Assembly (NCBI GenBank): GCA_977017645.1
Contig: OZ360223.1
Location: forward strand, 198,152,001-198,216,000
Reading direction: 5' to 3'
Origin: Torpedo marmorata
Lineage: Eukaryota
DNA length: 64,000 nt
Shown: piece by piece, positions 18,601 through 64,000 of the stretch
Layout of the letters: each line of letters starts with the position of its first letter
Position numbering within the stretch: the stretch's first letter is position 1
The notes under the pieces: generated by a model
What the model was told of the DNA's origin: nothing
The model's input: the letters and a program-made list of their open reading frames with translations, nothing else
The model's database searches: none
Translations under genes and position numbers: made by a program

Positions 18601-19925
18601 ACTTTGGTCGAGGGTAACGGAGGTCAAAGTTGAGTCGATGTCTTGATCCGACGCGATGGGATGACTGGTGTTCCGTTCCTGCAATGGAGGGGCCAGGGAT
18701 GACGGCACCCGTGGGTCGTGGGCCGCGTATTGTCGGCAAGATGGCGATGAACAAGATGGCCACTCCCATGACTTGCACGAGTTGGCCGCGGGTGTGTAAG
18801 ATGGCGACGACGGAAATGACGACAAACACGATGGCTGCCCCCGTGTCTCGCACATGATGGCAGCGGACGGGCAAGATGGCGACGGCAACAATGGCGACCC
18901 CCATGCCTCGCATGCAGCGCTGCTCGATCCCGCTCGCGGTTTGATTTACAGACCTTGGTGAAGAGGCCTTTCTTCCCGCTGCTGGTGCAGGTTATCTCTC
19001 GGGCCGGGCAGCATTTCCGGGGGTGCTTTTCGAGTCCGCAGAAGTAGCACTTTGCAGACTCACAACTGGCGGCAGCTGTGGTTGATTCACTGGTGTGGTG
19101 CAGGGTCTGCAGCATCCACGGAGCCGGCGGGAGATCGCGTGCCTGGATAGCGTCGGAGTTCTGCAGAGCAGCTTCCAGCATATCGGCCAGCTCTATCGCC
19201 GAGCGTAATGTGAGGTCGGCTTGTTCCAGCAGGTGCTGGTGCACATACACCTATCTGGTCCCAGTGACAAATGTGTCTCTTACTAGGAGCTGCGCATGTT
19301 CTCCGGGCGTCAGTCCCTGGCAATCGTAGGCCCACACGAGTGTCTGTAGGGCCCAGACGAACTCAGCGCTCGACCCACCGGGCCGCTGCTGCCGTGTCGC
19401 TAACCGATGTCGCGTGTAGATGGTATTTACTGGCCGTAGGTACTGTCTTTTGAGGGCGTTCATCGCGCCATCGTAGGTCTGCAGGTCTCGGATCATCGAG
19501 TAGACCCTTGGGCTGACCCTAGAGAGGAGAACTTTGCATTTTGAAGCATCTTCGCCCACCTTGATTTCTTCCAGGTACGACTCAAAGCAGGCTAGCCAGA
19601 GTTCGAAAGCATTGCCGGCCTCTGGTGTTTGAGGATCGAGGTCCAGCTTGTCGGGTCTCAGGACGTTTTCCATGACTTAAATATTGCTAATAAAATTGAT
19701 GAGCCCATCAATAACTTCAAAAGACTAGAAGTTGTACTTGAACTGAAAGGCTTTTATTACCAATCGAATTGAGTCACATCCATGCTGGTTATCTGTCCTG
19801 GACTGGGGGAGGAGCAGTGGCACAATCGCCTTTATTCAGGGGGTCTGTGGGAGGAGCCACAGGAACAGTCAGCAGAGGGCATGTCCAGACATCTCACCCA
19901 GCCACAACCACTGTGGTTTACCACA
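15627..19925 (-). mobile_element. Ty3/Gypsy LTR retrotransposon copy A, full length but defective
   Basis: LTRs 15627-15860 and 19697-19925 (TG..CA); TSD GAGAC (15622-15626, 19926-19930); PPT GGAGGGGTGAA; gag, protease (FDTGST), RT, RNase H and integrase split by stops, frameshifts and deletions. Confidence 0.96.
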
Positions 19926-34892: not shown

Positions 34893-35766
34893 AAAGGTAA
34901 CTTTTTATTAACTAATATAGCAACTCCTCTTGCTTTAGAATTAAATGAAGATGCAACCACTTGACCAACCCATTCTCTCTTCAACTTTTGATGTTCTAGA
35001 TCTGTCAAATGTGTCTCTTGTAAACAAAGCGAGATCGACATTTAACTTTTTAATATATGCTAAAGTTTTCTTCCTTTTAATCGGATTATTTAGCCCATTT
35101 ATATTAATACTTACTACATTTATTGTTTTACTATCCATCATTACTAATTCTTAATAACTCTCTCTCCATCAGATCCATCAGCACCCTCCTCCACATTTGT
35201 AATCTATTTGACATCTCCTTAAAAAGAAAAAGAAAGAAAAAGAAAATTAAAAAAAACCAAAACCCCACTGTATACAATACTGGCAAAATTACCCCAGTAT
35301 TACCCCCCCCCCTCCATTACTCGGGAAGTGGCCCTCACCACTAAAGTGGTATGCGGCTGGGAAGGAGATAACAAAAAGTTCACCCCCCCAACAGATTTTA
35401 CACAACATTCATTATCATATCTTCATTTAGCTTCTTCAAGGTCCTTATTAACTTGGTCTTCATCAACCTCGATCTCGGCCTCATCCTCTTTTCCTAAAGT
35501 ACTTGGCAAAGAAACTTGGGATGGTGAAATATCTTGAACTTGGTGATGTTCCATCAAATCTTGATCTTTCTTCAAATATGGAAGGGAATTTGCATGTTGG
35601 AGAGCTTGTTGACAATCCGTAAGAAAACAAGATTGATTCCCTGTTGACTGAACCTTCAAAACCGCAGGATATCTAAACGAAAACTTACCGTATATTTCGG
35701 CGTATAAGTCGACCGGCAGATAAGTTGACCCCCTTTTTCAGCCTCATTTTAATGGTTTTATGGTAT

Positions 35767-36090
35767 ATCCGGCGTATAAGTTGACCCCCAAAAAACGCGA
35801 TGCCTGAGATGTTGCGCATTGACCGGCGTATAAGTCGACCCTCAAAAAACGCGATGATTGAGCTGCTGGGCGTTGACCGGCATATAGGTCGACCCTCAAA
35901 AAACGCGATGATTGAGCTGCTGGCCGTTGACTGGCGTATAGATCGACCCACACCGATCGAGATCATTGAGCTGCTGGGCGTTGACTGGCGTATAGATCGA
36001 CCCACAATGATCACGATCATTGAGCTGCTGGGCGTTGACCGGCGTATAGGTTGACCCACAACGATCGCGATCATTGAGCTGCTGGGCGTT
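35767..36090 (+). repeat. Subterminal tandem array, 54-bp unit x6
   Basis: Units start near 35767, 35821, 35875, 35929, 35983 and 36037; each holds a variant of the TIR core GGCGTATAAGTCGACC. Confidence 0.9.
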
Positions 36091-36110
36091 GGCTGGAGGT
36101 GATTGTTATC

Positions 36111-37436
36111 ATGGAGGCTCCATTGAAACGACGAAAGTATGAGGCGAGTTTTAAATTGAAAGTAATAGAAATGGCCAAGAAAACCAACAACTGTGCTGCA
36201 GCAAGAAAATTTGATATATATGAGAAGTTGGTAAGAGATTGGAGGAAGAAAGAAGATACTTTAAGAAAAATACCAAAAAGGCAATGTTCCATGAGAAGAG
36301 GAATCACTCGTTGGCCAGAGTTGGAAAATCATGTAGCAGCATGGGTACGTGAACAGAGGCAAGATTGCTACATAGTCACCCGAAATAAAATGAGAACATT
36401 TGCACTGAACTGGGCAAAATCGCACCCAGAACTCAGTAATGATTTTGAAGCTTCAGTAGGCTGGTGCAACCGTTTTATGAACAGGAAAAATCTGGTATTA
36501 CGACAAAAAACTAAAATTGCTCAGAAACTACCAAAAGATCTTGATCATAAAGTTGTAAGTTTTCACCAGTTTATTTTACGTAACCGGAAGAAACACAAGT
36601 TTGCATTGGCAAATATTGGAAACATGGACGAAACCCCCATGAATTTTGACATGATAGGCAATAGAACAGTGGAATGGAAAGGTGTGAAAACTGTGCAAAC
36701 CAGGAGTACAGGACATGAAAGGACCAGGTTTACTGTGGTGTTATCGTGCATGGCCGACGGGACAAAGTTAAGACCCATGGTAATCTTCAAGCGCAAACTT
36801 AAACCTAAAATAAATTTCCCAGCAGGTATTTTTGTACATTTTCATGAAAAAGGATGGATGGATGAAAATGGTGTAAAACTATGGATAGACAATGTGTGGA
36901 ACAGGCGGCCAGGTGGTTTACGCAAGGAACGGAGTTTGCTGGTCTGGGATATGTTTCGTAGCCACTTAACTGAGAAGACTAAAAGTACATTAACACAACA
37001 TAAAACTTACATGGCGGTTATCCCGGGTGGTTTGACGTCTATATTGCAACCTCTCGATGTCTGCTTGAACAAGCCATTCAAAGACCACGTGCGTGAAGAG
37101 TGGAATACATGGATGACGAGTGCAGAAAAATCATTTACAAAAGGCGGGGCAATGCGTGCTGCATCGCTTGATGTGCTGTGTGACTTCGTGCTCAAGGCAT
37201 GGGACAAAGTGAAAGTAAAGACTATAATAAAATCATTTGAAAAGTGCGGTATCTCTTGTGCAATTGATGGTACGGAAGATGATTTATTGTGGGACACTGA
37301 CGACGAAGCTGAAGACGCCTCATCAGATACAGACTGGGACCCGTACGATGACTGTTTAAACAGTGAGACCCCGGATGTGCTTGCCGAGATCTTTGCCTCA
37401 GACGATGATAGCGAAAGTGATTTTGAAGGGTTCTAA
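36111..37436 (+). CDS. pogo transposase, 441 aa: Brinker-like DNA-binding domain, CENP-B HTH, DDE_1 domain and acidic tail
   Basis: RRKYEASFKLKVI; WPELE; ASVGWCNRFMNR; NMDETP...VWDMF-(35 aa between Asp residues)-QPLDV. Confidence 0.93.
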   Translation: MEAPLKRRKYEASFKLKVIEMAKKTNNCAAARKFDIYEKLVRDWRKKEDTLRKIPKRQCSMRRGITRWPELENHVAAWVREQRQDCYIVTRNKMRTFALNWAKSHPELSNDFEASVGWCNRFMNRKNLVLRQKTKIAQKLPKDLDHKVVSFHQFILRNRKKHKFALANIGNMDETPMNFDMIGNRTVEWKGVKTVQTRSTGHERTRFTVVLSCMADGTKLRPMVIFKRKLKPKINFPAGIFVHFHEKGWMDENGVKLWIDNVWNRRPGGLRKERSLLVWDMFRSHLTEKTKSTLTQHKTYMAVIPGGLTSILQPLDVCLNKPFKDHVREEWNTWMTSAEKSFTKGGAMRAASLDVLCDFVLKAWDKVKVKTIIKSFEKCGISCAIDGTEDDLLWDTDDEAEDASSDTDWDPYDDCLNSETPDVLAEIFASDDDSESDFEGF

Positions 37437-37588: not shown

Positions 37589-40402
37589 GATCGGCGTGAA
37601 CTCGATTTTGAGCTGAATTTAAGGTCTCAAAAGTATATCTGGCGTATAAGTCGACCCCCATGTTTTGAGACATTTTTGAGGGTTTCAAGGGTCGACTTAT
37701 ACGCCGAAATATACGGTATATCCCTTTTTCCAAAAAATCGCTTACGCTGGATTAAATTCCTTTCGTTTTTTAACTATAACTGAACTCAAATCAGGATAAA
37801 AAAAACTCTGTTCCCCTGAACCACCAATGGACCATTCTGCGACTTAGCGTTTTGAACAGCTAATTTCAATACCTTCTCTTTATCCGGAAATCGAAGACAT
37901 TTTAACTAAAACTGATCGTGGTCTTTGACCAACATATAGTTTCCCCCTGCCAACTCTATGTGCTCTCTCTACCTCCAGTCCAAACTGAAAATTATCAATA
38001 CCCAGAGCATCTGGAATCCATTTTTGAAAAAAATCAAAATTTTCAGGTAATCCCACAATTTTAATATTGTTCCTCCGGCTCTGATTGCCCAATACATCCA
38101 GCTTTTGTAAAAGTTCATTCCTTTGCTGCTCCCAACCTGTAAATGAATCTTCAACTTTATCAACTCTATCTTTAATCTCTTTTTCAATTTCTTGAACTTT
38201 CACTTTTACTATATTCACAGTATTTGTCTGTCTTCTCATATCTTGCTTGATATCTTTCATTTCTTCTTCAATTCCATTAAGTCTAAGTTCCAAACGATGT
38301 TCCATCATTGACATCTTCTTTGTTAAGTTATCAATAGCCTTAAGTATTTGTTGAGCTAGCGATACTTCAATCTCTTCTCCACTTGAATCTTCAGCCTCTC
38401 CCTCTCCCTCCATTTCTTCCATTTCTTCCTCCATTATTCCTTTCTTCGCTCTCTTTTTATCTTCTGAATCTGATGAAGTTTCAGGTCCCACATCATATTG
38501 TAATGATTGTGGGATGTTTCCTTTGCCGTCAGCCTTAGCTGACAGCTCCCGTTGTCTATCGCGCATGCGCACCGTTTCGCGCATGCGCGGTTGCTCACTT
38601 AAAATTTGTCATTTTGTTGTCTTCCTTCGAGCACCAGCGCCATCTTCCCCAGCTCCCCGGGATGGCAGCGCCGGCGCTTCGATGGCTCTAGGCACCCTCG
38701 TGTGAGTGTTCCTGGGAGGGAGAGAAACTTGAGCCTGAGCCTCCATCAAGCAGGTAGGCCGATCTTCCTCTTGAAATAAACTTTGTTGAAACACTACTTT
38801 CCTTGCCTTTTGTTCTTTCGTTTTTCTTGTAGCCATTCTTAAGCCTTTACTAAACACTCTTAACTTATTTTAAAACTAAATAAAGTTTCTTATAAACAGT
38901 TTTTGATTAATTCTGTGGGGAGAGGTGTATTTCCACGACTCCAACCTACGCCATCAAACCATGCACCCCCCGGCCCCCCCCCCCCCCATGAGTCAACTTT
39001 GAAAAATGTTTTTTTAGCAAGCTTTTTTAATGTTATAATAGGTAGCTTGGAACTCATTTAAGTTAGGCTAATTGTACCATTGTACTTTGCACATCTGCAA
39101 TAATATTATGTCTTTTGAGAATTGGGTACTGGAGTGAGCCAAGTCCCAACTGGTTCCAGTAAATAAATTAAAGTCTTAAATTGAAATGCAAAGAATGATG
39201 TACAGCTGGTTAGACTGATCTGTTTTTCCCCCATATAGGGTCTAACTGGTAAAAATATAAAAATTTGTGAAAACTGTACAGATTTAATATGAATATCTTT
39301 ATGCTACAAACATGTCCATAAAGACAGGCCAATGAATTTTTGTGTGGGGAGAAATCTTCCTCAGTTATGCTGTGTAACTTTTTTTCTGTGTAGAAGGCTA
39401 AACAAGCAGATTAGGTATTTTTTTTAGAAAATAAATATGAAGGACAAGGTCACTGGAGGACACAAAGATAGCTGTTGTTACCTAGTGGTTACACTAAGAT
39501 GAGACGAGAATAAAAATGACAACATAAATTGACCGGGCATTATTTGATGCCAAAGCATGTCCCAAGCTGCTTCATAAAGCATAATCAGTCAAAAATGTAT
39601 GCAAATTAAAGGAAATATAGCAATGGGGATCAATATAAATCACTTACTCTTTGTTTCTTGCTATATACAAGTTCTGTGTTGTAGATTTTGAATGAGAAGC
39701 AACAGAGGAGATAAAGAGGATCATAATCCTAATCCTCAATCAAATTTTAGCCCTAAGGGGGAATTCCTGAATTTGAATATTGAATTCAATAATTTCAGAT
39801 AATTGGATTCTCTTGAAGTTAGAGCCTGAATGACTAAAAGGAACAGGCACTGACTGAGGAGTGAAGAGATTGGGAAATCTACAAGAAGCCAGAATTGAAG
39901 GAAGGAAATAATTGTTCTATGTTATAAAATTCTTTCCAGTTGTGACAACTAATAAGTATAGATTCTCCCTCTGCTGTGAATTCAATATCAAAAGTGGATC
40001 ATGTAGAACAATTAACATGTCTTCAAAAGCTTTATGGTAACCTTCCAAATTGGGCAAAATTGTACAGATGAACCAAATTGGCATTAAATCTTCATACTGG
40101 ATACAAGCTTTAATTGTTTGGGAACTTTGCATCTTCAAATGTTTTTGGCATTTTTACAAAACTTCAGCAGCTGTGAAATAACTTTTGCAAATCTCAATAG
40201 AGCCAAATTAAAATTTACTGTTGATGGTTATAGCCAAGTAAATTGTTGTCCCATAATCCTCTGGGTATCCCCAAGGATGCAGTTGGATTTAATGGATTTA
40301 AGTTCAACATCTGGTTCTGATACTCTAACTTGTTATGATCTGTATTGATTAACAATCATTCTTCAATAACATATTTTCCATCATGAGTCTCAATATGAGT
40401 CT

Positions 40403-43400
40403 GAATCAGAATCAGAATTTATTGTCATGAACAAGTCATGAAATTCGGTGTTTTACGGCAGCATCATAGTGCAAACATTCACATTATACCATCTTACGAC
40501 ATTACTATAAAAATATATAAATTATATATGACAAAATCTGTTGCATCTTTAGTACAACTGTCTATTTTATTGAGAGAATATGGGGAAATATCTGGATATA
40601 AAATTAATTCTGATAAAAGTGAAATTATGGCATTATCACAAGGGGATTATAGTAGATGTAAAGAAATTACACAATTTAAATGGGCAAAGGAAGGAATTAA
40701 ATATTTGGGAGTAAGGGTTGATACAAAATTGGCTAATTTATATAAATTAAATTACCTACCATTATTCGTGAAAATAAAGAAAGATTTAGAAAATTGGAAA
40801 GATTTACTTATAACTTTATTGGGAAGAGTAAATTGTATTAAAATGAATATTTTTCCAAGAATTCAATATCTTTTTCAATCAATTCCTTATGGAATTCCTC
40901 AAAAAAAATTTAAGGATTTAAATTCAATTATTAGGAAATTTTTATGGAAAGGAAAGTTAGCAAGAGTAGGTATGGAAAAATTAACTTGGAATTATGAAAT
41001 GGGTGGCTTGCAACTTCCTAATTTTCAAAAAATATTATAAAGCAGCTCAATTAAAATTTGTTAATGAATTTTTTGACTCAACTAAATCTCCTGCTTGGAT
41101 TAAAATAGAATTAAACAATATAGGTGATGACTCTAAAGAAGAAATTATTTATAAATGGGATTCTAAATTAATATCAACAAGAAAGAAAAATTTGCCTATT
41201 TTTAAACATTTGTTAGAAATATGGAATAAGACGGATAAGGAAATAGGAGGAAAAGGATTGATTTCTCCAAGGATGCCTTTATATCAAAATGGACTTATTC
41301 CATTTACTATTAATAATCAATTATTTAAAATTTGGTTTCAAAAAGGAATTAAGAAGATTAGTGATTGTTTTGAAGCTGGGAAATTTATTACGTTTCAAAG
41401 AATGAAAGATAAATTTAATATATTAGATAATACACTTTTTGCTTATTATCAAACTAGACCTTTTCTGATTGAGAAATTAGGTTATGCTTTGATTTTACCA
41501 AGACAAAATGAATTAGAATTATTAGTTACTAATGGAGATATTAATAAATTTATTTTTCAAATGTATAAATTGTTTCAGAGGAAAATGCCTAAAGTAGGTT
41601 TGCATAAATCAAGATTAAAATGGGAATTAGATTTGAATGTAAGAATAGATGAAAATCATTGGAAAGAATTATGTAAATTAAGTATGACGAAGATTATTAA
41701 TGTTAGATATAGACTAGTACAATATAATTTTTTTCATCAATTATATTTAACACCTAAAAAATTAAAGAAATTTAATCCGACATTATCAGATTTATGTTTT
41801 AGATGTAATAAAGAGGAAGGGTCTTTTGTACATTGTACATGGTTTTGTCCAAAAGTTTATGATTTTTGGTTGAAAGTTAAAAAATGTTTAGATAAAGTAT
41901 TTAAGATTGCATTTCCAATGGATCCTATGATACTTTTGTTTGGAGATATTAGAAAATGTAGTATTAAGATGAAAATAAAAATGTATCAGATAGAATATTT
42001 GCGAATTGCTTTAGCTGTTTCAAAGAAGTGCATTGCTATTACTTGGAAATCTGATTTAGATTTAGGATTAGAAAGATGGCATGCAGAACTTCGTTCATGT
42101 ATACCACTTGAAAAAATTACTTATAATTTACGTAATAAATATCATTTCTTTTTAAAAATTTGGAGCCCATATATGAAAGCTGTTGGTTTAAGGATTTGAA
42201 GATCTCTAGATATCGGATCTGCTGGCATACTTGACCTCCATAATAGAATTAGTTTATAGATTGGCATTCCCCTTACTCTATCTTTTTCTTTCTTTATCTT
42301 CTTCTTTTTCTATTTTTATTTTTTATATATATTTTTTTTTATTAGATTAGTGGGGTTGGGAGGGTTGGGGAGGGGAGGGAGGGGGGGTGAAATTGTATCA
42401 CAAATAATTTGATAATTTTATATTCCATTTTATGTATTTTGTGATTTAAAAATTTTAAATAAAATATTTTTAAAAAAATATATATATATATAAATAATAG
42501 TGCACGAAAAGTAAGGCAGTGTCTTTGGTTCATTGATTATTCAGGAATCTGTTGGCAGCGGGGAAGAAGCTGTCCTTGTGCCGTTGAGTGCTCGTCTTTA
42601 GGCTCCTGTACCTTTTTCCCGATGGTAGCAGAGTGAAGAGGGCATGGCCTGGGTGGTGGGGGTCTTTGAGGATAGAGGCTGCTTTTTTAAGACACCGCCT
42701 CATGTAGATGTCCTCGATGGAGTGAAGTCTGGTGCCTGTGATGTCACAAGCCGAGTTAACAACCCTCTGGAGTTTACTCTTGTCCTGAGAGTTTGTGCCT
42801 ACATGCCAGGCAATGATGCAACCAGCCAGAATGCTGTCCATGGTACACCTGTAGAAGTTTACGAGAGTCTTCGGTGACATACCGAATCTCCTCAGACACC
42901 TCACAAAGTATAGCCGCTGGCGAGCCTTCTTTGTGATTACATCAACGTGGAGGCTCCAGGACAGATCCTCGGAGATGTTGACACCCAGGAATTTGAAGTT
43001 CTTGACCCTCTCCACTACTGAGGCCTCGATGAGGACTGGGTCGTGTTCCCCTGACTTCCTCCTGAAGTCCACAATCATTTCCTTGGTTTTGCTGATGTTG
43101 AGCGCAAGGTTGTTGTCATTACAACATTCAACGAGCTGATCTATCTCTCTCCTGTACACTTCCTCATTGCTGTTTGTGATTCTGCCGACAACTGTGGTGT
43201 CATCAGCAAACTTGTAGATGGCATTGGATTGTGCCTGGCCACACAGTCATGGGTGTATAACGAGTAGAGCAGTGGGCTAAGCACGCATCCTTGGGGTGCG
43301 CCTGTGTTGATAATCAGTGAGGAGGAGACGTTGTTTCCAATTCATACTGACTGTGGTCTTCCGATGAGAAAGTCAAGGATCCAGTTGCAGAGTGGGGTAC

Positions 43401-43813: not shown

Positions 43814-45188
43814 GATATTGAACAGACAGTGAGAAGATGTTGCATTTGTCAGGAGATGCAACCCAAAGCACCTCAAGCCGAAGCTAACCCATGGAAATGG
43901 CCATCACGACCATCGCACAGGATTCACATATTTTTCGTTGGTCCCTTTATGGGAGAAAACTTCCTTACTGTTGTCGATGCACACTCTAAATGGCCAGTAG
44001 TGTCACACATGCGAACAACAACAACAGACCAGACAATTGAAAGACTACGAAGTATGTTCACATCATATGGATTACCTATAGAACTAGTCTCCGATAATGG
44101 GCCATAATTTGTATCCGATGCTTTTAAGGTGTTCCTACATAATAACAATAGACGACACATCTTATCCGCACCCTACCACCCAAGCACGAATGGGGAAGTG
44201 GAACATTTTGTACAAACTTTTAAAAAGGCCATGAAGACTAAGAAAATCCTAAACATATCATGGAATCACAAAATCGCAGATTTTCTGTTAGGATATAGAA
44301 ACACGCCGCACTCTACAACCAAACAAACACCAGCAGAATTGATGTTTGGGCGTAACTTAAGGACAAGACTTTCCATAGTGCACCCGAACATCAACCTCTG
44401 CAAGGAACAATCCACGTCTCCAGGTAAATCTACCAGATCTCTGGAAGTAGGAGAGCGAGTACTGGTACGAGACAATAGGGAGCCGTGGGTGAGAGGCGTG
44501 ATTCTTAAAAAACTAAGTCCCTGTTCTTATTCTATACTGGTGGGAACTAAAATATGGAAACGGCACATCGACCAGTTAAGAGTGGTGGATGATCCTATGG
44601 CCACACCTACTGCTCATGATCCCGACGAGATTCAGATGAGATTCCATTTTGGGCTCCTGCCACCGACGACGTTCCAGAAATATCTTCGGGAAATGATGCC
44701 CGCTCGATGTTGACTGCTCAGCAGAGCAGTCCTACACTATGTACGGCTCATCAGAGCAGACCTACACTGCGTCCTGCTCAGAAGCGCAGTCCTATGCAAC
44801 TTCCAAATGGGGCTCGCCAAAGACTAAGTTCATAGTCCTTACCACCAACCGAGGAGAAGGTACTACCCCACAAGGCAGAGAGTCCGGAGAAGTCGCAAAG
44901 TATCCCAGTGGATTCTACCTCGCCAAGAAAATCCAAAAGGGAAAGACGTCCTCCAGAACGCCTAAGGGACTATGTACAGTGACTTGGCGGCTTAACATGT
45001 CATCCTTACGTTGTAGTGTAATTATGATTCTCACCATTAGTTCATGTGCACCATGTAGTTATCGAAGTTTAGTATAAGTGCTGCCTATATGTTATTTTCA
45101 CGAAGCATTTATTTTGTGGGGGGGGAAGAGTGTTGTGAATATACACCTGCGTGTGTATGACGTCATCACGCCCAGCGTGTGATGTCAT

Positions 45189-47055: not shown

Positions 47056-47627
47056 ATGTTCAAATAATTGTGCAAATCTTGCTTCAGCTTACCTTTTTCC
47101 TGGAGGAGGAGGAGAGAAATGACAGTCAACCTGTTCTGCTGGGCCTGATGAGCCAAATGCTGATCAGCCATGGCAATACATTCTGTAGCCCCACCAGATT
47201 ACAAGTCATTGCACGGTATCCACTTCACAAGACAAGTCCCACACGCTGCAGATGCACCTCTTTGCAGTTCCCCACATTGTAAATCATCAATATGTTTTCC
47301 CCACACAATGCAGATGCATTAATCTGCAGTCCTCTCTCACTGTAGACGCATCACTCTGAAGTACCGACCCAGTGCCTACACAATGCTTTGCAGTTCCCTT
47401 GCTATTCTCTTTGCTTCCCTTGAATTTACATCGGAAACCCTGGCAAATTTCCACAGATGTGTGGTGGAATGTGTGCTGACTGGCTGCATCACAGTCTGGT
47501 ATGGGGACTGTGGTAAACCACTGTTTTAGTATTGTGTGGTATAGGTATGTACTGCAGGCTGTCCCGATGTCTACTCCCCCCCCCCCCTCCCTTGGGTGTC
47601 CAGGTAATCCCTCCCCCTTCCTCACCT

Positions 47628-47664
47628 GAATAAAGGCCACTGTGCCACAGTCCCTCCCTCAGTC
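47628..47664 (+). promoter_or_regulatory. Candidate LTR core promoter: TATA-like GAATAAAGG plus Inr-like YCAGTY about 30 nt downstream
   Basis: The same two motifs at similar spacing occur in all four otherwise divergent LTR subfamilies. Confidence 0.5.
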
Positions 47665-47791
47665 CGGGATTAGATCTGCAGGAATACTGCTGCTGTGTTT
47701 TAAGGTAATAAAAGCCTATGGTTCGTTCACACTCATAGTCTTTGAGTACTTATTGATAGGCCTACCAATTTTATTACCTTATAAAAATCTG

Positions 47792-50700
47792 ATGGAAGGC
47801 GCTCTAAGACCGGACCGTCTGGACATCGATCATCTAGCTCCTGATGCCGGTAACTCTTTTGAACACTGGCTACGCTGTCTCGAGTGCTTCATGATAACCA
47901 TCAAAGCGGAAAGCGAGGAGCAGCAACTAAGGGTCCTCGTGTCCAGGGTAAGCCCTCGGTTATTCTCAACAGTGAGAGACTGTAAAACCTATACGGAGGC
48001 GATGGATGCGCTGAAAAGGATCTACGTGACGCCTGTCAACGCGGTCTACGTGAGGTACAGCCTTTTTACGCGAAAGCAGCGAGCCGGGGAGTCCATCGTG
48101 GAGTATGTCCGGGACATACAGTCGCTGGTACGAGCGTGCGACTGTAAAGCCCTAACTGCCAAGGAGCACGTTGAATTGCTGGAGAGAGACACGTTCATCA
48201 TGGGGATCAGGTCGGTATACGTGCGCCAGAGGCTGCTGGAGCACGCCGACCTGGACCTCCGTTCTGCGGTCTCAATGGTCCACACGCTGGAGTCCGCGCT
48301 GCGGAACTCCGACGCCATGCAGGCGCGCGACCCCCAGCCCGCAGCGTGGCCAGCCCCGTCCCCCAGCCCTGCCAGCGATCTGACTGCCGCCGCCGTTTGC
48401 CGCGACCCGATCACTACCGCCGCTATCCTCACCGCCGCAGCCGTTAACCGTGAGCCCGAGAAGTGTTACTTCTGCGGGCTCGACAAGCACCAAAGGAAAC
48501 GCTGCCCGGCCCGCGACACGACTTGCTCCAGCTGCGGCAAGAAAGGCCATTATGTGAAGGCCTGCCGCTCCAAGTCGCGCACGGGTCCGAGGAGCGCCGC
48601 GTGCGAGCTGCGAGAGCGGCCATCTTTGATGCTGGCACTTCCGGCGTCAACCTCGTGCGAAGAGTGGAGGTGGCCATCTTTGATGCTGGCACTTCCGGCG
48701 CCACCTTCTTATAGGCATACGTCGGTACTTCCGGCACTACCACCGCCGCCATCGTGCAGCGCGAGCAGCAGCGACATGTGCGATCCACGGGAGCGGCCAT
48801 CTTTAGCAACGGCAGATCAAGACGACTACATCCCAACCTTAGCATCAGTCACCCTTGACCAGAGTGTCCCCCACCAGCTGTCGCGATCCATGATGGACAT
48901 CCTGGTGGAGGGGCACAAAACCACCTGTCTCTTCGATACGGGCAGTACGGAGAGCTTCATCCACCCGGACACTGTCCAGCGCTGTGGCCTCACTACTATA
49001 CCGGTAAGCCAGAGGGTGGCCATGGCGTCTGGGTCACACACAACAGACATCCGGGGGGCTTGTGTGGCAAATATCGTGGTACAAGGGACTGAGTATCGCC
49101 AATTTTCCCTGTTCATTATGAATCGTTTGTGTGCACCAGTGTTATTGGGTCTTGATTTTCAGAGCCACTTACGGAGTGTCACGATGCGGTATGACGGTCC
49201 ACACCCCGCGATCACTGTAGCGAACCACCAGTTCCTGAACGACACGTCCCAGACTACCTGTGGCCTCTCCACTCTTAAGATCTCGCCCCCGTCGCTATTC
49301 GCCAACCTGACCCCTGACTGTAAGCCTGTGGCAACCAAGAGCAGGCGATACAGTGCAGGGGACAGGGCGTTTATCAAGACGGAGGTGCAGAGGTTATTAC
49401 AGGAGGGGATTATTGAGAGGAGTAATAGTCCCTGGAGAGCCCAGGTAGTCGTCGTAAAAGGGGCCAAGAGTAGGATGGTGGTCGACTACAGCCAAACCAT
49501 CAACCGATTCACGCAGTTGGACGCATATCCGCTACCACGAATAGCGGATATAGTAAATCAGATTGCCCAATATAGGTTTTTTTCCACCATAGACCTAAAA
49601 TCGGCATATCACCAGCTCCCTATCCAAAGGGAGGACCGCCTATACACTGCGTTCGAGGCGGATGGCAGGCTGTTCCATTTCCTGCGTGTCCCTTTCGGGG
49701 TCACTAATGGTGTATCGGTATTTCAGCGGGAGATGGACAGGATTGTGGACCATTATAAACTCAAGGCCACTTTCCCATACCTGGATGACATTACTATCTG
49801 TGGTCTTGATCGTCAGGACCACGACAACAACCTCCGGAAGTTCCTGCAGGCGGCCAAAGCACTAAACCTAATGTATAATAAAGAGAAATGCGTGTTCGGT
49901 GCCACCCGCCTCGCTATTTTGGGATATGTGGTAGAGAACGGGGTGATTGGACCCGACCCCGACCGCATGCGGCCCCTGCTGGAACTTCCACTTCCCTCCA
50001 CACTCAAAGCACTTAAACGATGCCTCGGGTTCTTTTCGTACTATGCACAGTGGGTTCCAAATTATGCTGATAAGGCCCGACCCCTGGTGAAATCCACCGC
50101 ATTTCCCCTTGCTTCGGAGGCGCGTAAGGCGTTCGACCTTATAAAAGGGGACATTGCGCGAGCAACAATGCACGCGGTGGACGAAGAGACACCTTTTCAG
50201 GTAGAGAGCGACGCATCGGACTTCGCGCTGGCTGCTACCCTCAACCAGGCGGGAAGGCCGGTGGCGTTTTTCTCACGGACCCTCCAAGGCCCCGAAATTC
50301 GGCACTCCGCGGTGGAGAAGGAAGCCCAGGCCATAGTGGAAGCAATCAGGCACTGGAGGCATTATCTCGCCGGCAAGCATTTTACCCTGCTGACCGACCA
50401 ACGCTCGGTGGCATTTATGTTCAACAATCAGCAGCGGGGTAAGATCAAAAATGACTAGATCATGAGGTGGAGAATAGAACTCTCCACCTACAATTACGAC
50501 ATCCTTTACCGGCCCGGGAAGCTCAACGAGCCCTCCGACACTCTATCCCGGGGATCATGCGCCAGCGCGCAGATCGACCGATTACATGCCCTCCATGACG
50601 TCCTCTGCCACCCAGGAATTACCAGGCTCTTTCACTTTGTGAAGTCACAGAACCTGCCATACTCCCTGGAAGAGGTCAAGACAATGATCAGCAGTTGCCG

Positions 50701-51678
50701 GGTTTGCGCGGAGTGCAAACCCCAGTTCTACCGCCCCGACAAGGCACAGCTGATCAAAGCCACCCGCCCCTTTGAACGTCTCAGTATTGTTTCAAGGGCC
50801 CCCTTCCCTCCACGAACCGCAACGTGTACTTCTTGAACATTATTGACGAGTACTCGCGGTTCCCCTTTGCCATCCCCTGCCCCGACACTTCGGCTACCTC
50901 AACCATAAAAGCTCTTCACCAGGTTTTTACGCTGTTTGGCTTCCCAAACTATATACATAGCGACCGGGGAGCAGCTTTTATGAGTGAGGAGCTGCGACGG
51001 TACCTGCAGGCCCGAGGCATCGCCACTAGCAGGACCACCGGGTACAACCCCCGGGGAAATGGACAGGTGGAAAGGGAGAACGCTACAGTCTGGAAGGCCG
51101 CGCTCCAGGCTCTCAAGTCCAGGGGACTGCCGGTCTCCCATTGGCAGGACGTCCTCCCCGAAGCCCTCCACTCTATCCGGTCCCTGCTGTGCACGTCCAC
51201 AAACGCAACCCCTCATGAACGACTTTTCTCCTTCCCCAGGAAGTCGACCACCGGAACCGCCCTACCTGCCTGGCTGACGTCCCCGGGACCAGTGCTGCTC
51301 CGCAATCACCTTCGGAGCAGCAAATATGAGCCGACGGTCCAGAGGGTGCAGTTGGCGCACGCCAACCCACAGTATGCATACGTGGTCTTCCCTGATGGGC
51401 GAGAGGACACTGTCTCGATTCGTGACCTGGCGCCCGCTGGGGCACCAGAAGGAAATCCCGACGGGCAAGACCACCTGCTGCAACCCCTCCCCAATCCACC
51501 GTCCAGCGCGTCAGACCCAGCACCCTCGCCGGGACCACAGACACACCAAGAAGCCAGGCAGGAGGCGACTGAACAGACAATCCTACCATCTCCCCCATTA
51601 CCACAACCCGCCCCGTCACCACAAGGACTACGCAGGTCACAGCGGCAAATTCGATCGCCGGATCGCCTAGATCTGTGA
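47792..51678 (+). pseudogene. gag-pol: gag-pol of copy C: single frame, nonsense at 50456-50458, frameshift near 50788
   Basis: ORFs 47642-50458, 50462-50836 and 50824-51678; KIKND* versus KIKNDK in the paralogues. Confidence 0.92.
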
Positions 51679-52228
51679 AAGTGCATATATATATATGTTT
51701 CTGTATAATAGTCACTGTATATCTGCTTCTGTAATATAGTTAGAGTGGTCACGTCACCCCGCTGGACTCTTTTTAAAAAGGAGGGGTGAATGTGGTAAAC
51801 CACTGTTTTAGTATTGTGTGGTATAGGTATGTCCTGCAGGCTGTCCCGATGTCTACTCCCCCCCCTCCCTTGGGTGTCCAGGTAATCCCTCCCCCTTCCT
51901 CACCTGAATAAAGGCCACTGTGCCACAGTCCCTCCCTCAGTCCGGGATTAGATCTGCAGGAATACTGCTGCTGTGTTTTAAGGTAATAAAAGCCAATGGT
52001 TCGTTCACACTCATAGTCTTTGAGTACTTATTGATAGGCCTATCAGGGACACCAATACCCCGAGCGTAAAGCCCTCCAAAAGGTAGTGGACACAGCCCAG
52101 GATATCACAGGCAAAACCCTCCCCACTATCGAACATCTACAGGGAACGCTGCCGTCGGAGAGCAGCAGCAATCATCAAGGATCCACACCACCCAGCACAC
52201 GTTCTGTTCTCGCTTCTACCATAAGGAA

Positions 52229-57494: not shown

Positions 57495-57836
57495 TGATGA
57501 GCCCATCAATAACTTCAAAAGACTAGAAGTTGTACCAGAACTGAAAAGCTTTTATTAGCAAAAGAATGGAGTCATATCCGTGCTGGTAATCTGTCCCAGA
57601 CTGGGGGAGGAGTGGTGGCACAATGGCCTTTATTCAGGGGGTCTATGGGAAGAGCCACCGGGACAGTCAGCAGAGGGCATGTCCAGACATCTCACCCAGC
57701 CACAACCTATACAAAGTGGTTTACCACATTCACCCCTCCTTTTAAATGTCCCACGGGGTGAAAGGTGTAACAATATTTACAAAAGAAATTACAAATTAGT
57801 ATATTTACAGGTCGAGTCGATCAGGCGGTCGAGTCC

Positions 57837-60800
57837 TGATATACCTATCAATAACCGACACGAGTCTAGAAGTGCAGGAATTAACAGGCTTTTATTAACA
57901 GAATCAAAGCCAGGGCTGACTATGCCTTGACCTGATGATCCCTGCTGGATTGTCCCGGAACTGGGGGAGGAGTTGCTGGCTCAAGGCCTTTATTCCAGGT
58001 AAAGGGGGAGGGGTCACCGGGACAGACAAACAGGTCATGGTCATACCTGCCTCAGGCCATAATACATACAAAGTGGTTTACCACATTCACCCCTTCTTTT
58101 AGAACAAGTCCGACGGGGGGGGTGAAGTGGAAAACTGTAAAAAGAGAAGAAAAAAAAAACAAAATACATAGATAATATACAGTTTTTACAGGTCGAGTTT
58201 CGCCGGCGGCCGGATTTGCCGCCGTGACCTGCGTAGCGCCAGCGGTGATGGTAGTGGTTGTGGAATGAGGGTACGGGTGAAAATACGTGATGCCCGCGGG
58301 GATGGTTGTGGCTGCGGAATGGGAGTAGGTACAGTAGGGTGGATCTGGGGCTGGTTCGCCTCCTGCCTGGCTAGTGGCCAGTACAGCTGTGACGGGGACA
58401 ACGTCGTGCTGGGAGGCGGATGGTCCGGAGGGGGCAGCTGCGACCCGGCGTTCCCGCTGTCGGGGACCTCTTCAGACGCTCCTGCAGGCCCCAGGTCCCG
58501 TATTGACACCGTGTCTTCCCGCCCGTCGGGGAGAACCACGAATGCGTACTGCGGGTTTGCATGGATCAGCTGCACCCTCTCGACTAAGGGCTCGTACTTG
58601 CTACTCCGAAGATGTTTGCGGAGTAGCACCGGCCCCGGGGACGTCAGCCAGGCAGGGAGTGTAGTCCCGGTGGTCGATTTTCTGGGGAAGGAAAAGATAC
58701 GTTCGTGAGGGGTAGTGTTAGTGGCGGTACATAAGAGGGATCGTATAGAGTGGAGGGCGTCCGGGAGAACCTCCTGCCAGCGAGCCACTGGCCACCCTTT
58801 TGCTTTCAGGGACAGTAGTGTCGCTGTCCATACAGTGGCGTTCTCCCTCTCCACCTGTCCGTTCCCCCGTGGGTTGTACCCCGTGGTCCTGCTGGTAGCG
58901 ATGCCTCGGGTCTGCAAGTGCTGTCGCAGCTCCCCGCTCATGAACGCGGACCCCCGGTCGCTGTGGACATAGCTGGGGAACCCGAACACGGTGAAAACCT
59001 GGTGGAGAGCCTTGATAGCCGACGCCGCTGAGGTGTCTGGGCAGGGGATGGCAAAGGGGAACCGCGAGTACTCATCGATGATGTTGAGGAAGTACACATT
59101 GCGGTTCGTGGAGGGGAGGGGGCCCTTGAAGTCTATACTGAGACGTTCGAACGGGCGGGTGGCTTTGACCAGCTGTGCTCTGTCAGGGCGGTAGTACTGC
59201 GGTTTGCATTCCGCACAGACTCGGCAGCTACTGGTCATGGTCTTGACCTCATCCAGGGAGAAAGGCAGGTTCCGTGCTTTAATGAAGTGGAACAGCCTGG
59301 TGACTCCTGGGTGGCAGAGGTCATTATGTAGGGCGTATAACCGGTCGATCTGCGCGCTGGCGCACGATCCCCGGGATAGAGCGTCAGGGGGCTCGTTGAG
59401 CTTCCCGGGCCGGTAAAGGATGTCGTAATTGTAGGTGGAGAGTTCTATTCTCCACCTCATGAGTTTATCATTTTTAATTTTACCCCGCTGCTGGCTGTTA
59501 AACATGAAAGCGACGGAGCGCTGGTCCGTCAGCAGGGTAAAATGTTTTCCGGCGAGATAGTGCCTCCAGTGCCGGACAGCCTCGACAATGGCCTGGGCCT
59601 CTTTCTCTACCGCGGAGTGCCGAATTTCGGGGCCTTGAAGGGTGCGGGAGAAAAACGCTACCGGTCTTCCCGCCTGGTTGAGGGTAGCAGCCAGTGCGAA
59701 GTCCGAGGCGTCACTCTCTACCTGAAAAGGTTCCGACTCGTCCACCGCGTGCATCGCTGCTCGGGCGATGTCCCCTTTTATGAGGTCGAAAGCCTCACGT
59801 GCCTCCGCTGCCAGGGGAAACTTGGTGGACTTGACGAGGGGTCGGGCTTTGTCCGAGTAGTTTGGGACCCACTGCGCATAATAGGAGAAAAACCCGAGGC
59901 ATCGTTTAAGTGCTTTGGGGGTAACGGGGATCGGAAGTTCCAACAGGGGGCGCATGCGGTCGGGGTCGGGTCCAATCACCCCGTTTTCCACGACGCACCC
60001 CAGGATAGCGAGTCGGGTAGTCCCGAACACGCATTTCTCCTTGTTATATGTGAGGTTCAGCGTCTCGGCCGCCTGTAAGAACTTCCGAAGGTTCCTGTCG
60101 TGATCCTGGCGATCATGACCACAGATGGTGATGTCGTCCAGGTACGGGAAGGTGGCAGTGAGCTTGAACTGGTCAATGATCCTGTCCATCTCCCTTTGGA
60201 ACACGGATACCCCATTTGTTACCCCGAAGGGGACGCGCAGAAAATGGAATAATCTGCCGTCCGCCTCGAAAGCGGTGTATACTCGGTCCTCCCGGCGGAT
60301 TGGGAGCTGGTGGTAAGCCGACTTAAGGTCGATGGTGGAGAAGACTTTGTATTGAGCAATCTGGTTGACCACGTCCGCGATCTTCGGCAGCGGATAGGCG
60401 TCCAGTTGCGTGAACCGGTTGATGGTCTGGCTATAGTCCACCACCATCCGGCTCTTAGCCCCGTTCTTCACCACGACTACCTGTGCTCTCCAGGGGCTGT
60501 TACTGGGTGCAATGATCCCTTCCCCCAGCAAACGCTGCACCTCCGCCTTAATGAATGCCCTGTCCCCTGCACTGTATCGCCTACTTTTAGTTGCGATGGG
60601 CTTACAGTCAGGGGTCAGGTTGGCGAAGAGTGGCGGGGGTTGGGTCTTTAGTGTGGAGAGACCACAGGTAGTCTGGGGCGTATTAATTAAATATTGGGGG
60701 TTAGTCACAACGATTGGGGGGTGGGGCCCATCATAGTGCATGGTGACGCTACGCAGGTGGCTTTGGAAGTCCAATCCCAGCAATACAGGAGCACACAAAC

Positions 60801-62565
60801 GGGGCATGATTAACAATGAAAACTCCCGATATTCCGTGCCCTGTACCACTATATTCGCCACACAACCCCCCCGGATGTCTGTTGTGTGCGTTCCAGACGC
60901 CATGGCCACCCTCTGGCTTACCGGTACAATGGTGAGGCCACAGCGCTGGGCAGTGTCAGGATGGATAAAACTTTCTGTACTGCCTGTGTCGAACAGGCAG
61001 GTGGTCTTATGCCCTTCAACGAGAATGTCCATCATGGATCTGGACAGTTGATGGGGCGCGTTCTGGTCCAGCGTCACGGATGCCAGGGTCGAGACGAAGT
61101 CTTGATCTTGATCCGGTGGCAGCTCCCGTAGCTCGTACGTGTCGCTACGAGGGGGTGGAGCCGGGAGTGCTGGAAGTGCTGCGGTGAGATTATAAAATGG
61201 CCGCGCCGGAAATGTAGAGATCGGATGTGTGGACCAAGATGGCCGCCTCCAGTCCTCACACGAGGTCTCCTCAGGAAGTGACGTCGGGTAAGATGGCCGC
61301 CCCCTCCCGTCGCACGTGGCGCTGCTGGAAAACGGAAGTGCTGCGCGCTGTGATGGCTGCCTCCAGACCTCACACGAGGTCTCCGCCGGAAGTGGAGTCG
61401 AGTAAGATGGCCGCTCCCGTACCTCGCACGTGGCGCTGCTCGGACCCGTGTGCGACTTGGAGCGGCAGACCTTAGCATAGTGGCCTTTCTTGCCACAGCT
61501 AGAACAAGTCGCGTCTCGGGCCGGGCAGCGCTTGCGCGGGTGCTTGTCGAGCCCGCAGAAGTAGCACTTCTCGGGCTCCCGGGTGATAGCGGCAGCGGTT
61601 AACTCACGGGTAGCGGCGGGCTTTCGGGCAGCGGCGGCAGCGGCCAACTCACGGATAGCGTCGGCGGCGGCGAGCGGGTCCCGGTAGACGGCAGCAGCCG
61701 TCGCGTTGCTTGTAGGGCTGACGGTTGGGGCAATCCAAGAAGCAGGCTGCGCCTGCATAGCGTCAGCGTTCTTTAGGGCTGAGTCCAGATTCAGGATGTT
61801 CTGGACAGTCGATTTCAGGGTCAGGTCGGCGTGTTCCAGCAATCGCTGGCGGATGTAGCCCGACCTGATCCCTTTTATGATAGTGTCCCTTGCCAGAATC
61901 TCGGAGTGTTGCTCAGCCATCAGGGCTCGACAGTCACACGCTCGTACCAGGAGCATCACGTCCTGGATATATTCGGAGACCGACTCTCCGGGTCGCTGGT
62001 ACCGCTGCGATATCCGGTGCCTTGCGAAAATCTCGTTCGCAGGCGTCAGGTACAGCGTTCGGAGGGTGAGCAAGGCATCATCAAAAGTCCCACAGTCTCT
62101 GACGGCGCCATACACTCGCTTGCTTACCCTGGACATGAGGATATCGAGTTTCTGCTCGTCGGTAGCCGCTCCGGACGACCTCACGTAGGCTGTGAAGCAG
62201 CGTTGCCACAGTTCGAAATCGCTTGCAGCGTCTTGGGCCAGGGGGTCGATGTCTAGCTTGTCTGGCTTTAACAAATTCTCCATTGATTCGTATTTTGTTG
62301 AAACTGTTAATAAAATTGATATACCTATCAATAACCGACACGAGTCTAGAAGTGCAGGAATTAACAGGCTTTTATTAACAGAATCAAAGCCAGGGCTGAC
62401 TATGCCTTGACCTGATGATCCCTGCTGGATTGTCCCGGAACTGGGGGAGGAGTTGCTGGCTCAAGGCCTTTATTCCAGGTAAAGGGGGAGGGGTCACCGG
62501 GACAGACAGACAGGTCATGGTCATACCTGCCTCAGGCCATAATACATACAAAGTGGTTTACCACA
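57837..62565 (-). mobile_element. Ty3/Gypsy copy D, intact and very recent
   Basis: 249-bp LTRs 57837-58085 and 62317-62565 with one difference seen; TSD AGTCC (57832-57836, 62566-62570); PPT present. Confidence 0.98.
58186..62283 (-). CDS. gag-pol: Single-frame Gag-Pol polyprotein, 1365 aa (2x CCHC, protease, RT, RNase H, integrase; no env, no chromodomain)
   Basis: CYFCGLDKHPRKRC and CSSCGKKGHYAKVC; LFDTGST; YLDD; ESDAS; HPG..CRVC; DFKG..HSDRG..ERENA; C-terminal RRSRRQIRPPAKLDL. Confidence 0.96.
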   Translation of the reverse strand: MENLLKPDKLDIDPLAQDAASDFELWQRCFTAYVRSSGAATDEQKLDILMSRVSKRVYGAVRDCGTFDDALLTLRTLYLTPANEIFARHRISQRYQRPGESVSEYIQDVMLLVRACDCRALMAEQHSEILARDTIIKGIRSGYIRQRLLEHADLTLKSTVQNILNLDSALKNADAMQAQPASWIAPTVSPTSNATAAAVYRDPLAAADAIRELAAAAAARKPAATRELTAAAITREPEKCYFCGLDKHPRKRCPARDATCSSCGKKGHYAKVCRSKSHTGPSSATCEVRERPSYSTPLPAETSCEVWRQPSQRAALPFSSSATCDGRGRPSYPTSLPEETSCEDWRRPSWSTHPISTFPARPFYNLTAALPALPAPPPRSDTYELRELPPDQDQDFVSTLASVTLDQNAPHQLSRSMMDILVEGHKTTCLFDTGSTESFIHPDTAQRCGLTIVPVSQRVAMASGTHTTDIRGGCVANIVVQGTEYREFSLLIMPRLCAPVLLGLDFQSHLRSVTMHYDGPHPPIVVTNPQYLINTPQTTCGLSTLKTQPPPLFANLTPDCKPIATKSRRYSAGDRAFIKAEVQRLLGEGIIAPSNSPWRAQVVVVKNGAKSRMVVDYSQTINRFTQLDAYPLPKIADVVNQIAQYKVFSTIDLKSAYHQLPIRREDRVYTAFEADGRLFHFLRVPFGVTNGVSVFQREMDRIIDQFKLTATFPYLDDITICGHDRQDHDRNLRKFLQAAETLNLTYNKEKCVFGTTRLAILGCVVENGVIGPDPDRMRPLLELPIPVTPKALKRCLGFFSYYAQWVPNYSDKARPLVKSTKFPLAAEAREAFDLIKGDIARAAMHAVDESEPFQVESDASDFALAATLNQAGRPVAFFSRTLQGPEIRHSAVEKEAQAIVEAVRHWRHYLAGKHFTLLTDQRSVAFMFNSQQRGKIKNDKLMRWRIELSTYNYDILYRPGKLNEPPDALSRGSCASAQIDRLYALHNDLCHPGVTRLFHFIKARNLPFSLDEVKTMTSSCRVCAECKPQYYRPDRAQLVKATRPFERLSIDFKGPLPSTNRNVYFLNIIDEYSRFPFAIPCPDTSAASAIKALHQVFTVFGFPSYVHSDRGSAFMSGELRQHLQTRGIATSRTTGYNPRGNGQVERENATVWTATLLSLKAKGWPVARWQEVLPDALHSIRSLLCTATNTTPHERIFSFPRKSTTGTTLPAWLTSPGPVLLRKHLRSSKYEPLVERVQLIHANPQYAFVVLPDGREDTVSIRDLGPAGASEEVPDSGNAGSQLPPPDHPPPSTTLSPSQLYWPLARQEANQPQIHPTVPTPIPQPQPSPRASRIFTRTLIPQPLPSPLALRRSRRQIRPPAKLDL

Positions 62566-64000
62566 AGTCCGCCGCTGTGATCGGCGCAGTACTTGTGGTG
62601 ATGGGGCAGGCGGCGGTGCTGCCTCCTGCCTGATTTGGGGTACCAGCACGTCTGGCGTCAGCAAAACCTCGTGAGTGTATGCCGGTACGGGGGTCTCATT
62701 TAGTGTCTGTTTTGAATTATGTGGTGTCTCCTGTGTGTCTCTCATGGTCAGTGCGGGGATGACAGTGACCATGGAGTGTTCGGGGGCGAGGCACCAGTGC
62801 TCCTGCGGGCGCCAAGTCCCGGATGGAGACCATGTCTTCCCGCCCATCAGGAAAAACCACGTAGGGATCCTGGGGGTTCGCATGTGGTAGTTGAACCCTC
62901 ACATGTTTCCAGAGCATCACTGGCCCTGAGGACGTCAGCCATGCTGGTAGGGTAGTCCCGGTGGCCGACTTCCTGTGGAAAGAAAAGAGTCTCTCATGAG
63001 GGGTGGCATTGGTGGATGTTCATAGCAGGGAGTGGATGGAGTGGAGTGCCTCGAGAAGGACTTCTTGCCAGCGGGAGACTGATAATCCCTTAGACCTGAG
63101 GGCTAACAGTGTGGCCTTCCAGACCGTGGCGTTCTCCCTCTCCACTTGTCCATTCCCCCGGGGGTTATAGCTCGTGGTCCTGCTAGTCGCGATACCCCTG
63201 GCCAGCAGGTATTGGCACAGCTCGTCACTCATAAACGAGGACCCTCGGTCACTATGGATATAGCAGGGGTATCCAAACAATGTGAAGAGTTTGCGGAGGG
63301 CTTTTATGACCGAGGTGATCGTGGCATCGGGGCAGGGAATAGTGAAAGGGAACCACGAGTACTCGTCAATGACGTTGAGAAAGTACACATTACGGTCGGT
63401 GGAGGGGAGGGGGCCCTTAAAGTCGACGTTCAGTCGTTCAAATGGGCGGGTTGCTTTTATCAATTGTGCCTTGTCAGGTTGGTAGAAGTGCGGTTTGCAC
63501 TCCACGCAGACTTGGCAGTCCCCGGTCATCGTCCTGACCTCTTCAAGGGAGTACGGCAGGTTTCGGGCTTTCACAAAGTGGAAAAGCCGGGTGACTCTGG
63601 GGTGGCAGAGGTCGCAGTGGAGGGCATATAACCGGTCGATCTGTGCGCTGGCGCACGTCCCCTGGGATAGGGCATCAGAGAGCTCGGTGAGCTTCCCGGG
63701 CCGGTACATGATATCATAGTTGTAGGTGGAGAGTTCGATTCTCCACCTCAGGATTTTATCATTTTTGATCTTACCCTGCTGCTGGTTGCTGAACATAAAT
63801 GCGATTGAGCGCTGGTCAGTCAGCAGGGTAAACCTTGTGCTGGCAAGATAGTGCCTCCAGTGCCTGATAGCTTCCACTATGGCCTGGGTCTCTTTCTCCA
63901 CCGCTGAGTGCCGAATTTCCGGGCCTTGAATGGTATGGGAGAAAAACGCCACTGGTCTTCCCGCCTGGTTGAGGATAGCAGCCAGTGCGAAGTCGGACGC

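Follow-up and report, generated by a model that had tools for sequence, protein, structure and literature searches.

A chromodomain-less Ty3/Gypsy family of Torpedo marmorata whose leader pairs with its own LTR and which very probably primes reverse transcription with its own RNA

The window analyzed here, a 64,000-nt stretch of the Torpedo marmorata genome (contig OZ360223.1), carries four insertions of 4.3-4.7 kb, copies A-D, with LTRs of 229-259 bp (TG...CA) and 5-bp target-site duplications (TSDs; Table 1). Copies A-D are Ty3/Gypsy LTR retrotransposons. The single ORF of copy D encodes gag and, according to Pfam, protease, reverse transcriptase (RT), RNase H and integrase, which is the Ty3/Gypsy order; its gag has two CCHC knuckles, no chromodomain was found after the integrase by Pfam, and the best solved-structure match of its RT is the Ty3 RT. 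A purine tract precedes the 3' LTR in all four copies. Copy A is older, with 9 differing positions and 5 gap bases between its two LTRs, and copy D is nested in another member of the same family, between the integrase region and the 3' LTR of the latter (57495-57728, 62566-64000). The LTRs start with a short inverted repeat, GTGGT-AA-ACCAC (window 47510-47521), that is identical across subfamilies.

Table 1. Positions of the four element copies and their features in the window
Feature	Positions	Strand	Remark
Copy A	15627-19925	-	5' LTR 19925-19697, TSD GTCTC
Copy A signals	box 19836-19829, initiator A 19804	-	
Copy A pairing segments	arm 19765-19752, primer site 19695-19682, 3' LTR arm 15695-15682	-	
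Copy B	23912-28619	-	5' LTR 28619-28366, TSD GGGAT
Copy B signals	box 28504-28497, initiator A 28470, ATG 28341	-	
Copy B pairing segments	arm 28432-28420, primer site 28364-28352	-	
Copy C	47509-52045	+	whole Ty3/Gypsy element, TSD GGGAC
Copy C LTRs	5' LTR 47509-47767, 3' LTR 51791-52045	+	
Copy C TATA-like box AATAAAGG	47629-47636	+	U3; putative promoter box
Copy C initiator-like YCAGT	47659-47663	+	A 47661 = putative RNA start, 53 nt before arm end
Copy C upstream arm (putative primer)	47701-47713	+	ends AATAAAA; putative cut after 47713
Copy C stacked helix, 5' side	47714-47719	+	predicted pairing with 47756-47761
Copy C 7-nt bulge	47762-47768	+	contains LTR end; predicted fold
Copy C leader arm (putative primer-binding site)	47769-47781	+	reverse complement of 47701-47713
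Copy C first ORF	47792-50458	+	premature stop
Copy C polypurine tract	51776-51790	+	precedes 3' LTR
Copy D	57837-62565	-	5' LTR 62565-62317, TSD GGACT
Copy D signals	box 62474-62467, initiator A 62442	-	
Copy D pairing segments	arm 62381-62370, primer site 62315-62304	-	
Copy D single ORF	62283-58186	-	1365 aa

Other repeats were noticed as well. An integrase fragment at 44231-44713 belongs to a second Gypsy family, also represented by L167-L171, in which the LTRs are short and the primer site begins with TGG; from its motifs we take this family to be of Mag type. Another abundant family (L172-L177, L248-L256) has its integrase ahead of RT/RNase H, presumably a Gmr1-like domain order. Further repeats at 5466-7520, 36111-37436, 37880-42199, 1298-1945 and 35717-36094 comprise what we take from their motifs to be LINE-type RT ORFs, a pogo-like transposase, L1/Tx1-like ORFs and a GIY-YIG-like ORF between inverted repeats, together with a 54-nt tandem array.

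A sequence-only reading of the window had proposed that these elements lack a tRNA primer-binding site and that their leader instead pairs with an LTR segment ending in AATAAAA. The arms it named are exact reverse complements in copies B, C and D, and the leader of copy A matches its 3' LTR perfectly and its 5' LTR with two mismatches, as had been described. In all four copies the leader begins one base past the CA of the LTR with A-TTT rather than TGG, and the gag ATG lies close by, with 23, 24, 24 and 33 nt between LTR end and ATG. Genome-wide, a pattern for the LTR-leader junction gave 21,143 matches (control 0) and a pattern for the LTR start 90,894 (control 98). Covariation was analyzed in the first 100 junctions listed, where the distance from arm to LTR end was 53-56 nt; the junction pattern fixes leader positions 1-7 and the copies are related, so that pairing counts are not independent events. 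As the sequence-only reading had noticed among the subfamilies of the window, the distal arm bases vary yet stay paired: at positions 8-14, counted from the arm's 3' end, Watson-Crick pairs were found in 92, 97, 98, 97, 96, 86 and 73 of the 100 copies, as compared to shuffled means of 60, 33, 82, 50, 50, 44 and 50, and none of 1000 shuffles reached the observed values. Position 15 was paired in only 28 copies, and an excess over shuffles at positions 16 and 18 is ascribed to the relatedness of the copies. The 100 junctions contain 51 distinct arm/leader pairs.

The kind of base pair is also informative. The primer helix contained 5 G-U pairs in 1200 cells, the neighboring helix between R and U5 158 in 1000 (counts over related copies, not events), and the G-U pairs of the latter are fixed across whole subfamilies. 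Such a contrast between two neighboring helices is expected if a primer is copied into DNA, and is not expected of an RNA helix kept by selection; covariation here need not mean compensatory selection, as primer copying would yield the same pattern. The pairing was kept, not lost, in the larger sample, including elements picked without the leader pattern: among the first 30 LTR-start matches, 14 are 5' LTRs with gag behind them, and all 14, new ATTAAA subfamilies included, pair at no fewer than 10 of the first 12 positions. None of these 14 has a leader that starts with TGG, the start seen in the Mag-type elements L167 and L168 of the same genome. Taken together, our results show that the arm-leader pairing is not due to chance.

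We compared 17 distinct leaders with 27 distinct host tRNA sequences (9 anticodon types, from 30 of 61 listed host tRNA loci) and found matches of at most 4 nt, which bears out the view that the leader is no tRNA site; within this partial set a host tRNA primer is rejected. A primer made by splicing is not needed, since the arm is a contiguous genomic sequence. Locus L309, considered as a case of a primer site directly behind a 3' LTR, was dropped when its junction turned out to be more complex. Searches of Rfam gave no match and of viral contigs no relatives, a sequence look-up brought up no look-alike, and a protein atlas returned generic gag and RT clusters only.

Rays and sharks supply the closest named proteins among the homologues listed (RT/RNase H at 79-84%), and further relatives come from a sea anemone, nematodes, an isopod (crustacean) and insects; the precomputed domains of 32 and 120 listed homologues contain no PF00385 chromodomain. 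Metagenomes provided 66 loci with 43-66% protein identity. Thirty of these include the gag start with upstream DNA, and the other 36 have no usable gag start. Pairing over 10-18 nt, with at most one of 100 shuffles equally good, was found in 23 of the 30, and of the seven misses four (L086, L091, L095, L101) have by eye the same layout with mismatches while three have no recognizable LTR end. About 15 distant families share this self-pairing geometry. Fifteen family representatives were compared, 14 of them from metagenomes and one from this genome. Behind the AAA that closes the arm comes G or A and then C, loops measure 23-67 nt, and in 11 a helix starts at the first loop base; across the family gag starts 16-33 nt past the LTR. 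An RT tree of 61 rows joined the metagenome relatives with the window copies and with ten named proteins from animals into a single clade of 53 rows (support 100/99), separate from three Mag-type rows and from the family with integrase before RT; the tree includes no chromovirus or named reference, its Mag rows are labeled by motif, and long branches meet at its root. Against the Ty3 RT, copy D scored 177 bits and a Mag-type protein 255, a weak proxy for placement. In a hunt for a chromovirus outgroup, none of the 6 of 15 chromodomain matches that were checked adjoined pol, and the PF17921 and PF24626 matches examined, 6 and 9 out of 150 each, came from a different family. Our guess is that the named clade of the family is Cigr-1.

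Whether the arm lies at the end of the RNA or inside it depends on the RNA start. Two expression runs, which consist of contigs, showed neither RNA starts nor poly(A) ends. The TATA-like box AATAAAGG is present in 96 of the 100 copies, YCAGY follows it in 85, in 84 of them at an offset of 31-34 nt, and the A of this motif lies 51-75 nt upstream of the arm end. This spacing fits a TATA box with an initiator. It also resembles a poly(A) signal with its cleavage site, a reading that we disfavor because an RNA ending there could presumably not support strand transfer from a cut behind the arm. Right before the box, U3 carries TTACCT or TCACCT (47620-47628; also seen upstream of the arm in the distant relatives L061, L063, L068 and L086), the reverse complement of which resembles a 5' splice site.

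Box and motif had been defined before we found copies in which the complementarity extends beyond the arm. A pattern for such extended complementarity gave 156 matches in the genome, and 100 listed junctions were read. In 63 of these the complementarity reaches the LTR start, which indicates that DNA fold-back also produces such copies; 6 of 19 examined have a TSD and are integrase-made insertions (for most, the other end was not covered). At 14 nt or less, three junctions are no true extensions. Another eleven reach 17-22 nt, and 10 of these rejoin the leader or the gag start, some with two bases changed, so that rewriting of the leader from the LTR, in that direction, is well supported in these aberrant copies. 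The remaining 23 extend over 38-102 nt, mostly joining internal sequence afterwards, and none end at 23-37. After removal of two duplicates, 21 independent partial extensions (at least 23 nt, short of the LTR start) were left, of which 17 end at or before the position two bases past the initiator A (A+2), where 4.8 are expected under a uniform null, and 6 are no more than 2 nt away from it (0.67 expected). Among the ends at or before A+2 alone, the surplus close to this edge is modest (6 of 17, 2.4 expected, P 0.025). The ends shift along with the motif between subfamilies, as they fall at 38, 45, 66 and 73 where the motif is at 72-73 and thirteen fall at 40-55 where it is at 51-53. In L369 the complementarity of the leader covers 73 of 73 positions and breaks off right at the initiator A. 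Four of the 21 overshoot the putative start, by 7, 8, 30 and 49 nt, and microhomology of 0-9 nt at the junctions blurs the exact ends. Likely, the read-through ends mark the 5' end of the RNA at the initiator; a C-rich run just 5' of the motif could also stall the polymerase and mimic an RNA end. In the simplest reading, plus-strand synthesis would have copied the RNA to its 5' end, which would place the arm inside R.

Other rearranged LTRs were seen as well. Forty-eight LTRs (L257-L304) mix arm and U5 markers of different subfamilies, which is compatible with template switching, although their single-site markers are too weak to position breakpoints; of the 21 that have a leader behind them, 15 lack full pairing at positions 1-14 and are possibly recent recombinants awaiting re-templating. 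L319, L330 and L332 are insertions of 260-280 bp, flanked by TSDs and built of LTR sequence alone, with an inverted U5 end in place of the loop. A search for recombination breakpoints found a two-parent fit in 18 of 100 copies and no clustering at the putative cut.

Structure predictions from single sequences place the arm-leader helix on top of a second one, which begins with the base right behind AAUAAAA and bulges out the LTR end. The register of this second helix with a 7-nt bulge was the best of nine tested and was predicted in 90 of 100 folds. The alignment fold favored a hairpin between U5 and leader instead, and this disagreement suggests that the two predicted structures may alternate. 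The whole 5' region folded better than shuffles in copy D (z -4.30), and no better than shuffles in the other three copies (z -1.36, -1.49, -1.46). A third helix, between a 5' extension and the leader behind the primer site or the gag start, was not supported (permutation P 0.10). The LTR end and the first leader bases (47750-47769 and the equivalents in A, B and D) also form a palindrome with a 7-bp stem and a 4-nt loop, which competes with the stacked helix; two-sided changes preserve it in this genome, and it is not obvious in distant relatives.

In the scheme that we propose, the transcript would begin with the A of YCAGT, about 32 nt past the TATA-like box, and the leader would be bound by the 12-15-nt arm, the end of which would lie 51-73 nt into the RNA. 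The duplex would stack on the second helix with the LTR end bulged out, and by analogy with Tf1 the RNase H of the element would cut the RNA after ...AAUAAAA, whereupon the new 3' end could be extended over one spacer base into U5. The arm hexamer in the 3' LTR would put the RNA 3' end within the loop and thereby provide homology for strand transfer. Plus-strand synthesis would then copy 12-15 nt of the attached primer, and only rarely continue toward the RNA 5' end. As the primer site would be rewritten from the LTR in every cycle, this would account for the strict complementarity of arm and leader. Masking of the 5' hexamer would be a possible by-product of the primer helix. That the elements prime reverse transcription with their own RNA, in whatever form, we regard as very probable. 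On this the sequence-only reading is well supported, by the geometry, the Watson-Crick covariation, the rewritten leaders and the distant families; the further part of its proposal, a primer from inside R, has gained indirect support, from the upstream TATA-like box and initiator and from the read-through copies bounded there. That the primer is such an internal segment rather than the first bases of the RNA we favor by a modest degree. No mechanism is apparent by which plus-strand copying would halt at 12-15 nt, which weighs against it.

The most serious competitor of an internal primer is a terminal one as in Tf1. The RNA would then start at or next to the arm, with a TCT-type start, its first 12-15 bases would be the primer, and the upstream box and initiator would drive a second transcript that gives rise to the long read-through copies. 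One cut would suffice and the fixed length of the primer site would be explained. In 69 of 100 copies normal pairing does stop at the C of TCT or one base short of it, in subfamilies with 12-, 14- and 15-nt spacing, a boundary that would fit a second start site at the arm, and Tf2 is regulated through a choice of start sites, just one of which supports reverse transcription (PMC5341516). Yet TCT is absent in several subfamilies (20 of 100 copies), no TATA-like box was seen by eye 30 nt before the arm, whereas a conserved box and initiator stand 51-75 nt upstream of the cut, and the extensions of 17-22 nt and 38-73 nt need a template upstream of the arm. We therefore consider a terminal primer unlikely, while giving it more weight than any reading without self-priming.

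Of the latter, a duplex that serves 5' poly(A) masking or translation control, with reverse transcription primed otherwise, would fit the position of the hexamer: 97 of 100 copies have AATAAA or ATTAAA in the arm, neither was ever seen in the loop, the well-paired copies, those of subfamilies chosen without the leader pattern included, switch only between these two forms, and the leader is present only behind the 5' LTR. The arm hexamer is probably the poly(A) signal of the element in this host. Nine of the 15 representatives likewise have AATAAA or ATTAAA at the arm end and one has GATAAA, but the arms of the remaining five (L063, L067, L069, L070, L071) end in TTAAAA, TTTAAA or GTTAAA, and in L067 and L070 a canonical hexamer sits in the loop instead. 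Nor does masking call for an arm that ends at one base's distance from the LTR edge, G-U pairs should be tolerated in a helix of purely structural role, as they are in the neighboring one, and with gag 16-33 nt after the LTR no space is left for another primer site. As the only function of the duplex, masking or translation control is thus highly improbable. The earlier suggestion that the duplex could silence the 5' poly(A) signal remains plausible for this host and does not hold in general; the relatives without an arm hexamer make masking secondary, and for an added masking role of the primer helix we see about an even chance. We give hardly more credit to an inverted repeat kept at the DNA level, through fold-back or template switching, or to priming by an unknown small RNA or by the arm of the 3' R copy. 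The many junctions that reach the LTR start, some of them with TSDs, would suit the former, but fold-back presupposes the repeat and provides no primer. A primer from outside would need to differ from subfamily to subfamily, given the 51 arm/leader pairs, and ends at the initiator do not follow from priming by the 3' R copy.

Returning to self-priming from inside R, our fullest version of it is tentative. A widespread clade of animal Gypsy elements outside the chromoviruses might independently have evolved tRNA-free priming by a capped 5' fragment of 51-73 nt, the last 12-15 bases of which would be the primer and carry the poly(A) signal; one helix would set the primer, silence 5' polyadenylation and be re-templated in each cycle, and aberrant copies would record the RNA start. 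To our knowledge, self-priming has been shown only for Tf1 and is tied mainly to its chromovirus kin. The family that bears the self-pairing signature reported here numbers about 90,000 LTR starts in a single vertebrate genome, and annotation that relies on tRNA sites misses such elements. If the primer is internal, the enzyme must cut within R, and copying must stop with neither a tRNA modification nor an RNA end, which raises a question of RT/RNase H specificity. Elements of this kind would presumably escape silencing by tRNA fragments at the primer site (see PMC7472051). Aberrant copies could also be used to read off RNA starts in further families that lack RNA data.

In the literature searched we found no description of self-priming in this Gypsy lineage; Butler 2001, Repbase Reports and GyDB lie outside that search, and a prior mention there is possible. 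The available parts of PMC3601003, PMC6238403, PMC3587641, PMC13524379, PMC5443660 and PMC7472051 make no mention of self-priming in an animal non-chromovirus Gypsy clade. PMC6238403 names the Cigr-1, Tor2 and MolGy clades, and peptide motifs of the family were not found in its readable supplementary files or in the supplements of PMC13524379.

The Mag lineage resembles our family in its short LTRs and in two CCHC gag knuckles, and gag homology links our family to P0032 (E 2e-16), which, like L167-L171, we take from its motifs to be Mag-lineage Gypsy. The Mag-type RT, in contrast, is just 28-33% identical and falls outside the 53-row clade, and the Mag primer site starts with TGG (L167, L168). 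HIV-1, which is primed by a tRNA, also holds its poly(A) hexamer in a helix near the RNA 5' end, in a local hairpin, whereas the partner strand here is the primer site and is present only after the 5' LTR.

The closest parallel is with Tf1, which, following a cut by RNase H, uses the initial 11 bases of its RNA as primer (PMC7175516), and about half of Tf1 cDNA retains the copied primer site at its 3' end (PMC11042837); a structure of three duplexes, the 'pretzel', is common to Tf1/sushi chromoviruses (PMC10085805, PMC4600332). Self-priming has been predicted from the same type of evidence as ours for the plant elements Tcn1, a chromovirus that groups with Tf1/sushi, and TAR, of Ty1/copia (PMC6317226), in other lineages and other hosts, and fungal GalEa and bivalve TRIMs do without tRNA sites in other ways (PMC5445492; PMC6934838). 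Like Tf1 and Tf2 of Schizosaccharomyces pombe, Tj1 and the Tf1/sushi group at large, the family described here has a primer site that pairs with its own LTR RNA, a flanking helix and signs that the primer is copied into cDNA ends. It differs in that the arm measures 12-18 nt and probably lies 37-61 nt within the RNA, usually ends in a poly(A) hexamer, is supported in two helices of the three (the central duplex and one predicted stacked helix), and belongs to elements without a chromodomain. Since the chromodomain is absent and the primer is probably not terminal, the family should not be filed under Tf1/sushi. Rather, it appears from its sequences to work like Tf1, with a probable variant of self-priming; the arm-leader pairing itself is real and strongly conserved.
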